A stretch of DNA of 64,000 nt from Macrostomum lignano. Its lineage: Eukaryota. This document shows positions 4,528-15,051 of this stretch, one piece after another (the stretch's first letter is position 1; the number at the start of each line of letters is the position of its first letter). The position numbers and the translations under genes are program-made. A model generated the notes under the pieces. It was given only the letters and a program-made list of their open reading frames with translations. It searched no databases and had not been told where the DNA came from. The stretch is taken from contig NIVC01000633.1 in the NCBI GenBank assembly GCA_002269645.1, forward strand, positions 248,001 to 312,000. Reading direction: 5' to 3'.

Positions 4528-5183
4528 ACTACTATATGAACCCGTAAGGCTTGATTTTGCGAAGGTCCGTCGGGCTGATGTCGGCCTCTAGCACCGCGGC
4601 AAGGTGCTCCCTCGGGGTGTACCACCTCCCCCGGGGTGTACCTCCAGCGGGGTGGGCGTCCAGCAAGTGTACCTCCAGCGGGGTGGGCCTCCCGCGAGTG
4701 TACATCCGGCCGGCTGGGCGTCCAGCGAGTGTACCTTCAGCGCATGGGCCTCCCTCGGGGTGTACATCCGGCGGGGGGATTCCCGCCCCTCCCACCAATG
4801 TCGTGTGCACGCGGTTAGTGTAGGAAGGAAACCCCCGATGCTGACGCAGCCCTGTACACTGAGCAACCGGCCCCCATGCGGGGGACAGAGAGCAGCCCCT
4901 GTAGCAGGAGGGGTAGTGCGTGGAGAGCCGCCATCCCCCTGTAGCAAGGGACAGATAACAGGCGGCCCCCTGTAGCAGTATGAGGTGGGGTACAAAGAGA
5001 CACGGGGTGCTGGGACAGAGAGTGCGTGGAGGCACCCTGCGCTGCCCTGGCATGTCGCAGCACGCGGCGTGGACAGAGAGGGAGTGTGAGTCACACGGAG
5101 GGACAGAGAGCTTCCCCAGGCCGGGGTGGTAGAGGGACAGACCGGCGGTGAGTGATAGAGAGCTCCCCCCAGGGCAGTAGAGG
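4528..5183. repeat. Left terminal inverted repeat (~655 bp)
   Basis: Reverse complement of 14384-15051; for example TTGATTTTGCGAAGGTCCGTCGGGCTGATGTCGGCCTCTAGCACCGCGGCAAGGTGCTCCCTCGGGG matches exactly. The inner boundary is approximate. Confidence 0.93.
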
Positions 5184-5264
5184 ACTTGAAAAGAAAAAAC
5201 ACGTATTTTAGTTGTTTCAGGTTCAGGCCATCCGGCAAACAGAGCAAAGCTCTCCAACAGTGTT

Positions 5265-5918
5265 TTATTTAGCATAAACTACGGGGTAGCGCCCCAACAC
5301 ATTAGCATAGTAGCGAACAGATGCGTTCTGCAAGCAATTAACAATCAAGTAGGAGTAGGGCTCCCTAGTGGCGTCTTCGTACATTTGAACAAAACTTTTT
5401 GGGTTAGCGGGGACAAGCTGCTTTGCAATATGGGCGACTGTACTAACGTCCCGTACATTGCGGAACAATACAAGGTAGTTTGCGTTAAGGGATTGAGTGC
5501 GGTGCTCCTTGCCCTTGGCAAACAGGTTTTGTACAAGGTACCAAAGCCGGAATCCCACATGGCTGACTTTGCGAGTGAAAAATGCGGTAAAAGCAGCGTT
5601 TTTTTCCATGGCTTGCATTTGATCATCGACAACGAGTAGAATATTCGGAGCGGGAACATAGGTTTCAGGGTTAAATGTAGACGAGCGAAAATTGACAGGG
5701 TACGGTAATTCAAACAGTTCCGGGTCTGGATAGTGCCCAAACCAATCAACGCGAACAGGCTTAGGGTCCTGAAAAAACTCGTTTCGCAGCAATTCTTTAA
5801 CAAGAGTTGTTTTTCCGCTCTGGTTAACACCAGCAAAAATCGCCGAAGTATTTGGAGCAAACTTTAGAGCGTCAGGATCAATTGTTTGGTACATTTTCAG
5901 GGCGAGTTGACACTCCAA
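5265..5918 (-). CDS. A32/FtsK-like genome-packaging ATPase (likely ATG at 5894)
   Basis: Walker A GVNQSGKT, Walker B LLVVDD, then RKVSH..FRLWYLVQNLF..RTQSLNANYLVLFRNVRD, typical of Polinton packaging ATPases. Confidence 0.92.
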   Translation of the reverse strand: MECQLALKMYQTIDPDALKFAPNTSAIFAGVNQSGKTTLVKELLRNEFFQDPKPVRVDWFGHYPDPELFELPYPVNFRSSTFNPETYVPAPNILLVVDDQMQAMEKNAAFTAFFTRKVSHVGFRLWYLVQNLFAKGKEHRTQSLNANYLVLFRNVRDVSTVAHIAKQLVPANPKSFVQMYEDATREPYSYLIVNCLQNASVRYYANVLGRYPVVYAK

Positions 5919-5928
5919 ATATTAAAAA

Positions 5929-6366
5929 CTATTTTATTTGTAGAACATGTTTTCGAACCATCAAATCATTTTCAAGCAGATTGGTAGAGTAACATTCCCT
6001 TAAAATCTTTTCAATCGACAACCCCTCTAAAAAGTGCTTTTCGGCCACAAAAATCACATGCGGCCCACACGCTACACTTAGAGGGTGTTGAACAGGGTGG
6101 CGATTCATAGCAACAGGTGAATGTACATGCTTCGAGATCCAAGCCGAGAGCAATTCCGGCACGGGTTCAATACACAGAGGGTCAAAAAATGTCACACTCT
6201 TATCATCGTGTAGGCAAATCAGTCCCCAGTGGGTGCCTGGCAGATTACCCGTGTCAAAATTAATTACATATGCAGCAGGGTAAACAGGTGCAGGAATTCT
6301 GTCGAGAGGGCAAACGTGCACTTCCACAGGTAGTTTTAAACACTCCAAAATTTCCAACGTGTTCAT
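5929..6366 (-). CDS. Adenain-like cysteine maturation protease
   Basis: Catalytic pattern INFD..GTHW...FFDP...VQHPLSVACG (H, D, Q, C). Confidence 0.9.
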   Translation of the reverse strand: MNTLEILECLKLPVEVHVCPLDRIPAPVYPAAYVINFDTGNLPGTHWGLICLHDDKSVTFFDPLCIEPVPELLSAWISKHVHSPVAMNRHPVQHPLSVACGPHVIFVAEKHFLEGLSIEKILRECYSTNLLENDLMVRKHVLQIK

Positions 6367-13155: not shown

Positions 13156-13529
13156 TCCTCTGACTCGTCAGATTCGTCGAGAAAGAAATAGTGGAAGAAA
13201 TTGTCGACTCTATTCTTTTCAACTGCACAAAGTATTTTGTCTGACAGGTGAAATTCGCAGTCTCCTTTTACGTACAGGCGCTTCCCGTCGATAACTTTGA
13301 TAGATGCGCCGCCTCCGAGATCGTAATCTGTGCAGCTAGTGCCCAGAAATTTCATTCGATGCCATTGTGCTCGACTAAACACGGCTCCTGGGCAGCTACA
13401 GTTTTGACAGTGGATGCGGAAACGCGGTTTGTTTGGGTCCCAATATCCCACTTCCAACACTGCGTTGTCAACGTGGGTGTACACTATTTCCGATTGCCAG
13501 TGCATTTCGATATTGTTGAGAAATACCAA
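13152..13529 (-). CDS. Small protein, possibly PC4/Whirly-like (likely ATG at 13505)
   Basis: GAVFSRAQWHRMK resembles PC4 KGISLNPEQWSQLK, preceded by beta-strand-like segments, with an acidic tail. The similarity is weak. Confidence 0.4.
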   Translation of the reverse strand: MVFLNNIEMHWQSEIVYTHVDNAVLEVGYWDPNKPRFRIHCQNCSCPGAVFSRAQWHRMKFLGTSCTDYDLGGGASIKVIDGKRLYVKGDCEFHLSDKILCAVEKNRVDNFFHYFFLDESDESEE

Positions 13530-13539
13530 TTTTATTTAT

Positions 13540-14318
13540 TTATAGGCAGCCGTCTGAACAGATTTCCAACCATTCCCTCCACTGTAGAACGGTTCTCTCA
13601 ATTGATAAAAGTAAATACGCCGCTAGGAGCCCCGGTTGCTGCTGCGCGCTTCGTAAAGACAGTTGAGATATGTGTCTCTATTTGCATACGCAAATGATAC
13701 GGGTTCTGGCAGAATCCGGTTGAGCAACTTTGATAATAACAACCTAGCAGTTCTACCATTGCCGTCGCTAAAGGGGTGTATGGTGAGAAACTTTTCTAGG
13801 AAATATGCTCCTGTCACTACTGCATCACGCAAGATTTGTGGCTCTTTTATGTCTCTAGTTAATTTTACCAGCTGCCGTTCAATATTTTCTGGGGCACTGT
13901 AATACACACTCGCGCCTGCTGGCTTGGCGTGCTTAATTCTATACGATCCCGCATTCGGGAGCAGTCCTCTGCACACGCGTGTGTGAACTTGTCTAACAAA
14001 CTCTGTGTCAATTAACCCCCTCGTGTCATTGAGGTGTATTGCCGCACTCCATAGATTGGCTGTGACCATACAGGACCGGGTTTTTATCGCTTCTTCTGCT
14101 TCCTCCCAAGTCAACGCCACCTCTCTCTCCTCAATGTTTACTTCAGTTACGAATGCCAGCCGGGCTAGATGTGTGAATTCTAAGCGCTCCTTTGCGGTCA
14201 ATCCCTCGATTCTTTTCCTAGTGTCTGATAACAATCTTTCAATGAGGGGTAATCTGGCGCGCACGCTCTCGTTGCTGAAATAGGGGTTATCAGTTATACC
14301 CTCCTCCATGTTCTCCAT
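13540..14318 (-). CDS. Fic-domain AMP-transferase; a frameshift at ~13626 hides the last ~28 aa
   Basis: Canonical HPFSDGNGRTAR motif, plus VHTRV...AGSYR and an N-terminal EVNIEE. Adding one C gives ...NRGSLAAYLLLSIERTVLQWREWLEICSDGCL* with the stop at 13542-13540. Confidence 0.93.
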
Positions 14319-14383
14319 ACAGAGGGTTTGTACACTGCTTCTATTTATGGTTGAAATGACACGTTGCTCGCGGCCTGTCTGTC

Positions 14384-15051
14384 CCTCTGCAGCCTGGGGA
14401 GCTCTCTATCACTCACCGCCGGTCTGTCCCACGCCTCCAGACTGGGCCGCTCTCTCCGCGGGGGGTGTGATTCATACTGCCTCTCTGTCCACGCCGCGTG
14501 CTGCGACATGCCAGGGCAGCGCAGGGTGCGAGACCCACTCTCTGTCCCAGCACCCCGTGTCTCTTTGTACCCCACCTCATACTGCTACAGGGGGCCGCCT
14601 GTTATCTGTCCCTTGCTACAGGGGGATGGCGGCTCTCCACGCACTACCCCTCCTGCTACAGGGGCTGCTCTCTGTCCCCAGCTACAGGGCTGCTCTCTGT
14701 CCCCCGCATGGGGGGCCGGTTGCTCAGTGTACAGGGCTGCGTCAGCATCGGGGGTTTCCTTCCTACACTAACCGCGTGCACACGACATTGGTGGGAGGGG
14801 CGGGAATCCCCCGCCGGATGTACACCCCGAGGGAGGCCCATGCGCTGAAGGTACACTCGCTGGACGCCCACCCTGCCGGATGTACACTCGCAGGAGGCCC
14901 ACCCCGCTGGAGGTACACTCGCTGGACGCCCACCCCGCTGGAGGTACACCCCGGGTGTACACCCCGAGGGAGCACCTTGCCGCGGTGCTAGAGGCCGACA
15001 TCAGCCCGACGGACCTTCGCAAAATCAACGGATCTACCGGCCTATAGTAGT
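14384..15051. repeat. Right terminal inverted repeat (~668 bp)
   Basis: Imperfect inverted copy of 4528-5183. Confidence 0.93.

Follow-up and report, generated by a model that had tools for sequence, protein, structure and literature searches.

A replicase-free polintovirus lineage with two subfamilies in the genome of Macrostomum lignano

The genome of the animal Macrostomum lignano contains a multi-copy, long-lived lineage of polintoviruses that lacks a replicase gene. One copy lies in the 64,000-nucleotide stretch analysed here (contig NIVC01000633.1, positions 248,001 to 312,000; hereafter the window, numbered from 1), where a first-pass annotation had described a complete-looking Polinton-like virus with virion and integrase genes and no DNA polymerase. 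The element occupies 4528-15051 (10,524 bp) and is flanked on both sides by the 6-bp target-site duplication (TSD) GTCGGG, at 4522-4527 and 15052-15057. As a contig of sequencing run X11 carries the empty-site allele, fusing 4521 to 15052 with 6 bases shared, these boundaries are exact, and the ends, terminal inverted repeats (TIRs) and TSD of that annotation are borne out. Because its gene content includes no replicase, the element would depend on another one. In our best explanation, to which we give about an even chance, it is a satellite polintovirus replicated in trans by the protein-primed DNA polymerase of family B (pPolB) from co-resident Polintons.

Absence of a replicase in two old subfamilies

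Thirteen open reading frame (ORF) regions, all on the minus strand, fill 93% of the 9,230-bp interior, in line with the tight one-strand packing described before. The largest gap is 133 bp and no ORF in the replication slot exceeds 231 amino acids, so the view that no room is left for a pPolB or a helicase holds. A Pfam search of all six frames of 5170-14400 returned only rve and Fic at E≤0.1, with no polymerase, primase or helicase and no remnant of one; as positive controls, two pPolB loci of the host genome scored PF03175 at about 1e-18. A profile of 20 host-genome pPolB ORFs had no hit in the element either (best E 3), so that the pPolB of the classical Polinton/Maverick definition is missing by both searches. 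Pfam likewise gave no match to an SF1/SF3 helicase or to an archaeo-eukaryotic primase (AEP) or PolA fusion, and no Rep, helicase or origin-binding family was detected among the element proteins. Contigs from four sequencing runs span the replication slot, and none of the rows shown for them connects it to a longer form.

The host genome holds two polymerase-free subfamilies, A with about 26 loci of about 10.5 kb, to which the window copy belongs, and B with about 34 loci of about 9.8 kb. In a search with the major capsid protein (MCP), for which 98 of 451 candidates were scored and locus counts were read from the table, these loci formed tiers at 90-100% (A) and 78-90% (B) identity, with others at 30-33%; no MCP fell at 34%-66% among the scored candidates. 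Most elements with two ends were uniform in size: 14/17 in A measured 10,350-10,742 bp and 16/23 in B 9,398-10,429 bp, the B terminus being assumed from the start of its pattern and checked against the flank at one locus. Larger two-ended elements were C2210 (with a non-coding insertion), C1313 (with a second inverted module), C56 (without family genes) and C4. Sequence was read throughout for the window copy and C2210 and over most of C59 and C355; for the other loci, position tables were used. The first-pass annotation had asked whether other copies carry a pPolB at a deletion junction; no two-ended element has room for one except C56, which has none of the family genes. C2210 and C355 have flanks identical over 455/455 bases and are duplicates, so independent insertions are fewer than loci. 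On the three contigs carrying both, the nearest scored pPolB hit lies 34-122 kb from the element.

MCP genes of A (15 loci) differed by a median of 1.0% and those of B (14/15 loci; L056 omitted for length) by 1.8%, indicating that both subfamilies were recently amplified. Between A and B, the proportion of synonymous differences (pS) reached 0.68-0.83, which is near saturation, and nonsynonymous divergence (dN) was 0.065 for the MCP, 0.076 for the packaging ATPase, 0.115 for the integrase, 0.15 for the protease, 0.20 for an ORF of about 170 amino acids and 0.56 for the penton. Strong purifying selection acts on MCP, ATPase and integrase. Since A and B share one layout at near silent saturation, the polymerase-free arrangement is older than that divergence, and the virion module has been conserved since. 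In an MCP tree of 15 rows (midpoint root, a long-branch warning, no named reference Polintons), A and B were sisters, followed by three proteins of 80-81% identity from other data sets and, at a distance, by the rest. Together, these data confirm that the animal carries a genuine polintovirus lineage that is long-lived, present in many copies and free of a replicase, and that the window copy is not a one-off or ragged deletion.

The element was present in 20 sequencing runs from 8 studies, and its insertions are polymorphic. Element-wide cover was seen in runs guessed to be RNA, although multi-copy DNA could yield the same and no RNA run is listed among the holders. IMG/VR and phage records held no relatives, and metagenomes held one distant decayed locus.

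Several family members are rearranged. In one A copy, 3.36 kb of non-coding DNA has inserted into the penton gene, apparently duplicating 8 bp (L027:4727-8082), and a B copy has a second, inverted structural module (C1313:243781-257769). Elements on C356, C816, C1588 (about 7.25 kb) and C1705 (8.3 kb) have B-type ends and no hit to MCP, integrase or the two slot proteins described below; they are probably non-autonomous B derivatives.

Gene content of the window copy

The features of the window copy are as follows, amino acids being abbreviated aa.

4522-4527, no strand: left TSD copy, 6 bp, at the empty-site joint in run X11
4528-5168, plus: left TIR, (ACT)2A terminus, variable nt 8-25, 31-bp tandem array at 4636-4742
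5265-5894, minus: packaging ATPase, 209 aa, P-loop; weak Pfam AAA match (E 0.015)
5929-6366, minus: maturation cysteine protease, 145 aa; weak Pfam Peptidase_C48 match (E 0.06), MCP-protease order the same in L061
6363-7646, minus: MCP, 427 aa, Polinton type; 31-35% identity to animal Polinton-type proteins
7676-8020, minus: basic ORF, 114 aa; 86% identical in B, dN 0.09
8064-9199, minus: penton (minor capsid protein), frameshifted; a single 376-aa frame in another copy
9203-10279, minus: rve integrase split over three frames, chromo-like domain at the C-terminus; Pfam E 5e-10 for rve and 0.04 for Chromo
10413-11037, minus: ORF of about 190 aa, frameshifted
11040-11450, minus: ORF of 129 aa with amphipathic C-terminus
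11468-11950, minus: TBP-like protein, about 160 aa; Pfam TBP (PF00352) 23.0 bits, cut-off 22.9
11868-12548, minus: predicted OB-fold single-stranded DNA-binding protein (SSB) of T7 gp2.5 / nucleocytoplasmic large DNA virus (NCLDV) type, 226 aa; predicted structure with local distance difference test score (pLDDT) 82
12641-13155, minus: ORF of about 170 aa, frameshifted; in B 68% identical over 88 codons, dN 0.20
13152-13505, minus: beta-rich ORF, 117 aa, PC4-like by eye
13623-14318, minus: Fic-domain protein with complete catalytic motif; Pfam Fic E 4e-14, subfamily A only
14396-15051, minus: right TIR, mismatched to the left TIR at nt 10-24
15052-15057, no strand: right TSD copy, 6 bp

Contrary to the first-pass annotation, the copy is not intact, as the integrase, the penton and the ORFs of about 190 and 170 aa are frameshifted. 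Most of these breaks are missing from other copies and from short-read contigs of four runs, pointing to private decay or assembly error. The integrase frame, for example, is open at 9 A loci (379 aa) and 13 B loci, and its rve domain scores 39.9 bits against a cut-off of 32.6. The MCP is of Polinton type, with 30-35% identity and E values to 1e-69 to animal Polinton-type proteins; homologues of 30-31% sit 8-10 kb from PF03175 hits on C4619, C4948 and C4976. A PDB sequence search with the MCP had no match and the penton matched no family, both assignments being made by homology and synteny. ATPase and protease stay under their Pfam cut-offs, and their motifs and synteny fit. By resemblance, the 114-aa ORF is probably a virion core or membrane-lytic protein, the ORF of about 190 aa probably a conserved Polinton morphogenesis gene and the 129-aa ORF probably a virion protein. 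The penton is 41-45% identical between A and B, with divergence mostly in its middle (window 8342-9199 compared with L057:1-1074), where its dN of 0.56 arises against 0.065 for the MCP; the variable middle is a candidate receptor-binding insert.

The polymerase slot holds an SSB-fold protein, a TBP-like protein, two ORFs without assigned family and, in A only, Fic. The first-pass annotation had filled it with a TBP-like/PC4-like/Fic block: TBP-like and Fic hold up, the PC4-like ORF (117 aa) has no Pfam, PHROG or PDB sequence match, and the SSB, the chief pointer to the mechanism, had been overlooked. In its structural model, the 226-aa ORF has the T7 gp2.5/NCLDV-type SSB fold, and single-stranded DNA binding is predicted. 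Modelling the full 226 aa gave a pLDDT of 39 and meaningless matches; the 180-aa domain modelled with 7 sequences gave 82. This model matched CP312R of African swine fever virus (ASFV; 8hw5) with Z 11.0 (root-mean-square deviation 3.9, 157 residues aligned), T7 gp2.5 (1je5) with Z 8.8 (3.3, 125 aligned) and the Enc34 SSB with Z 7.5, the first unrelated row following at Z 4.7; its best matches among predicted structures were nucleocytovirus proteins (E 3e-10). For the TBP-like protein, 5/5 alignment members matched PF00352, 20/21 PDB hits were TBP and the Atlas score was 0.95. Its frame has no in-frame ATG, with TTG where a relative has Met, and overlaps the SSB tail by about 80 nt (11868-11950), so that a non-AUG start or coupled translation may be used. 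SSB and TBP-like proteins are 70% and 78% identical between A and B, and their genes turned up at loci of both subfamilies and in decayed fragments of these (122/122 and 93/93 candidates scored). Contigs of matching length (2933, 3894 and 1242 bp) suggest that relatives of the two genes are adjacent in three other data sets too. Family searches with the ORF of about 170 aa had no match. At B loci no Fic match was seen (76/76 candidates scored), and the confinement of Fic to A accounts for the A-B size difference.

The coding strand carries seven copies of the motif TATAAATA and the opposite strand none, against an expectation of 0.2 per strand; the copies lie mostly just upstream of genes and often overlap AATAAA. 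To judge from the sequence, this placement points to expression by host RNA polymerase II (Pol II) with signals of host-nuclear type.

Element ends and the source of the replicase

The TIRs are about 640 bp long, with arms 94-100% complementary that reach about 5168 and 14396; the element thus combines the long TIRs and 6-bp TSD of classical Polintons/Mavericks. The A terminus is (ACT)2A, not (AGT)2, (AG)3 or (AC)3A, and the B terminus is apparently AG without reiteration. In A, 7 fixed bases precede an 18-nt segment (nt 8-25; window 4535-4552 and 15027-15044) and a fixed block. This segment took 18 forms among 46 ends, counted by eye from matches that all had the 18-nt length, longer gaps lying outside the search, and the variants resemble shuffled short blocks. 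Such hypervariability contrasts with the MCP divergence of about 1% in the same subfamily. B ends, by comparison, are near-invariant over 28 nt, with 57/60 at one mismatch or less from the pattern, and no similarity was seen between the terminal repeats sampled from A and those from B. Among 17 two-ended A elements, the two ends carried the same variant in 10, differed by one base in 2 and differed widely in 5; in 4 of these 5, each end recurred in another copy when read by eye. We infer that matched and swapped ends reflect homogenisation through a panhandle plus recombination between genomes co-replicating outside the chromosome. Alternatively, such ends could stem from mixing during assembly or from gene conversion among integrated copies. 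Rfam gave no match in the element.

Abundant 4-8 kb elements share a 26-bp TIR motif with A and none of its genes (281 motif hits, A copies included; C303:573454-581378 and 21 other listed pairs, L062, L060:1170-3001). At the insertion site, the window copy apparently interrupts a host gene for a galactose-3-O-sulfotransferase (minus strand, 4150-4527 and 15052-16361) in its final coding exon. Upstream exons match PF06990 (E 8e-20 and 1e-13), the last-exon piece has no Pfam match, and a spliced contig of run X11 bears the empty allele of this gene. By eye, the surrounding DNA holds ordinary host content: a decayed reverse-transcriptase-like fragment (16573-17238), a kinesin-like ORF (28098-29054) and an SF1 helicase-like ORF (44214-45596).

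Strand displacement by a protein-primed polymerase, as in adenovirus and phi29, needs no helicase. The TIR ends and the SSB, together with the lack of helicase, primase and polymerase, fit such synthesis by a polymerase supplied in trans. In the cycle that we propose, the integrase would excise the element, and the pPolB of a helper Polinton, with its terminal-protein domain, would prime at the reiterated terminal trinucleotides. The linear genome would be copied by strand displacement while the SSB coats the displaced strand, and the TIRs would re-pair as a panhandle. Host Pol II, together with the TBP-like protein, would express the genes from TATA boxes, and progeny would be packaged in the element's own capsid and re-integrate. 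According to the accessible part of bioRxiv 10.1101/2024.03.18.585575, eukaryotic pPolB contains the terminal protein as its N-terminal domain.

Potential helpers are at hand: the 91 of 974 candidates scored in the host genome gave 119 PF03175 matches, and the genome has many pPolB loci whose frames are open over long stretches and which fall into at least four families by sequence. Several findings, however, weigh against replication in trans by a resident Polinton. The same-ended pPolB element that the first-pass annotation had suggested looking for was not found among the 91 of 974 PF03175 candidates scored, and all 46 A-type ends belong to family loci or to contigs C56, C467 and C544, which have no PF03175 hit. 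SSB and TBP genes are absent from the pPolB-bearing loci of the host genome, bar one broken TBP trace; as the closest folds of the SSB are moreover those of giant viruses, descent of the cassette from a resident Polinton is not obvious, and both genes look closer to those of giant viruses than to those of resident Polintons. Because the terminal repeats of A and B are dissimilar, a single helper would need relaxed specificity. The depth of about 150-200 in run X1, compared with 16 in the flank, is explained by integrated copies alone. To our knowledge, use of a Polinton pPolB in trans is without demonstrated precedent.

Some specific helper candidates were set aside. C56 (18.4 kb, A-type ends) has no family MCP, integrase, SSB, TBP or Fic; in its first 3 kb, the part that was read, a TIR of A type is accompanied by non-coding sequence and a related repeat nested within it, and an ATPase is absent. 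A bipartite genome with a second, pPolB-bearing segment sharing the TIR motif was rejected for the C303 copy (1 of 22 listed pairs sampled), as this 7.9-kb pair has at its centre a palindrome without coding content (2,386 bp, 97.6% self-inverted). The SSB gene matches one pPolB family over 25 bp; this stretch is AT-rich, lies on the non-coding strand and was treated as chance. The A-shared motif also occurs 4 kb and 8 kb from PF03175 hits (C428:218381-223064 and C38:1120009-1128403) and flanks a 19.6-kb stretch with a 35% integrase (C106:354688-374300); these loci are candidate helpers or nested insertions. One resident pPolB family has an endonuclease VII domain within the polymerase (L012, E 1e-8).

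Replication might instead be left to host polymerases, copying an excised single strand folded as a panhandle or hairpin and recruited by the SSB, the TBP-like protein and the small ORFs; one ORF without assigned family may be an initiator. The failure to find a matching helper among the scored candidates is consistent with this, as are the SSB, TBP and 170-aa ORF cassette kept in A and B and the many motif-sharing 4-8 kb elements, since the palindromic non-coding centre of the one sampled resembles a snap-back product. We nonetheless consider it unlikely: the element proteins include no detected Rep, helicase or origin-binding family, and the TIRs are open and of protein-primed type, their terminal 273 nt folding no better than shuffles (z -0.66). 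A polymerase supplied by a large DNA virus infecting the animal, with the element as its virophage-like parasite, is less probable still. It would suit the nucleocytovirus (E 3e-10) and ASFV CP312R matches of the SSB and the viral origin of one of the top three Atlas TBP clusters, and protist Polinton-like viruses (PLVs) of such a lifestyle are described in the accessible text of PMC10120064. A fold match does not reveal the donor, however, and the strand bias of TATAAATA with its AATAAA overlap is a host-nuclear type of signal.

There may also be no replicative phase at all, the integrase moving the element by cut-and-paste, copies being gained in host S phase and the capsid serving merely as a vehicle. 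The integrase frames open at 9 A and 13 B loci, the TSDs and the insertion polymorphism agree with this account, but it leaves the retained SSB, the matched end segments and the exchange of ends between copies unexplained, and we give it a similarly slim chance. Finally, the family could be a recent deletion derivative of a pPolB-bearing parent, passively amplified, and two loci might be taken as traces of such a parent: C56, with 18.4 kb between A-type ends and its interior read for the first 3 kb, and the 19.6-kb motif pair around the 35% integrase on C106. This explanation is largely refuted and very improbable, because A and B have the same polymerase-free layout at near synonymous saturation, no MCP of 34%-66% identity was seen among the scored candidates, C56 has none of the family genes named above, and the slot-crossing contigs of four runs are, in the rows shown, not joined to a longer form.

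Comparison with known systems

The element resembles Polintons, Mavericks and adintoviruses (Polintoviricetes) in its MCP, rve integrase, long TIRs and 6-bp TSD and in its putative penton, ATPase and cysteine protease, and, in the accessible portions of PMC4405056 and PMC8097293, Polinton hallmarks include intronless genes under purifying selection, which it matches. It differs in having no pPolB and in carrying SSB, TBP-like and Fic genes. It is also smaller, at 9.7-10.6 kb compared with 12.7-24.6 kb for the intact vertebrate Mavericks described in PMC8097293. The Maverick end motifs given there are (AGT)2, (AG)3 and (AC)3A, and the long TIRs and reiterated terminal trinucleotide of the element resemble such ends. 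The element thus works like a Polinton by its morphogenetic module, integrase, TIRs and TSD, and fails the classical definition, which, as stated in PMC4405056, requires pPolB.

Loss of pPolB is already in print as replacement by a helicase or primase. According to the available text of bioRxiv 10.64898/2026.06.19.733378, group 2 Maverick-Polintons often have SF1/SF3 helicases in place of pPolB, as a rule in fusion with a polymerase or AEP; like our element, they pair an animal Polinton-type module lacking pPolB with an exchangeable replication module, whereas the element has no substitute replicase. Tlr1, in what is accessible of bioRxiv 10.1101/2024.03.18.585575, likewise has an rve integrase and no canonical pPolB. 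Unlike the element, Tlr1 and PLVs have a large helicase-containing replication protein and protist hosts, and many protist elements have no detectable polymerase but do have helicase fusions (PMC10120064, in part). An animal lineage without any replicase was not found in the accessible parts of the literature, including PMC8502044, PMC11131425, PMC6431247, bioRxiv 10.64898/2026.10.13.758929 and 10.1101/2025.04.19.649669; subscription papers, Repbase and preprint supplements were beyond this scope. The empty replicase slot is what differs here. Since pPolB is the defining gene of Polintons and the bait in most surveys, a lineage without a replicase would escape notice or be written off as a set of decayed copies.

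Capsid genes have been kept under strong purifying selection long after the polymerase was lost. This pattern of substitution argues, indirectly, that virions of Polinton type do form and are important for spread. Replication in trans by pPolB also becomes testable, in a widely sequenced, insertion-polymorphic animal.

Helper dependence with an own capsid is known elsewhere. Virophages and virophage-like PLVs have their own capsid, depend on a helper virus and, in mavirus, integrate into the host, much like the proposed lifestyle of the element; they encode their own polymerase or primase-helicase, whereas the helper suggested here would be an endogenous relative. Adeno-associated virus has its own capsid, is helper-dependent and has its own Rep. 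More tentatively, and as a possibility somewhat short of probable, we picture a long-lived animal satellite virus of Polintons that has its own capsid and integrase and parasitises an endogenous helper pPolB, in which the subterminal mosaic segment, fixed at 18 bp, would serve as a cassette for origin function or for evasion and be subject to diversifying pressure, and the motif-sharing palindromes would form a third tier of parasites. If true, this would be a helper-satellite system in which every member is a DNA virus endogenous to the same animal genome.

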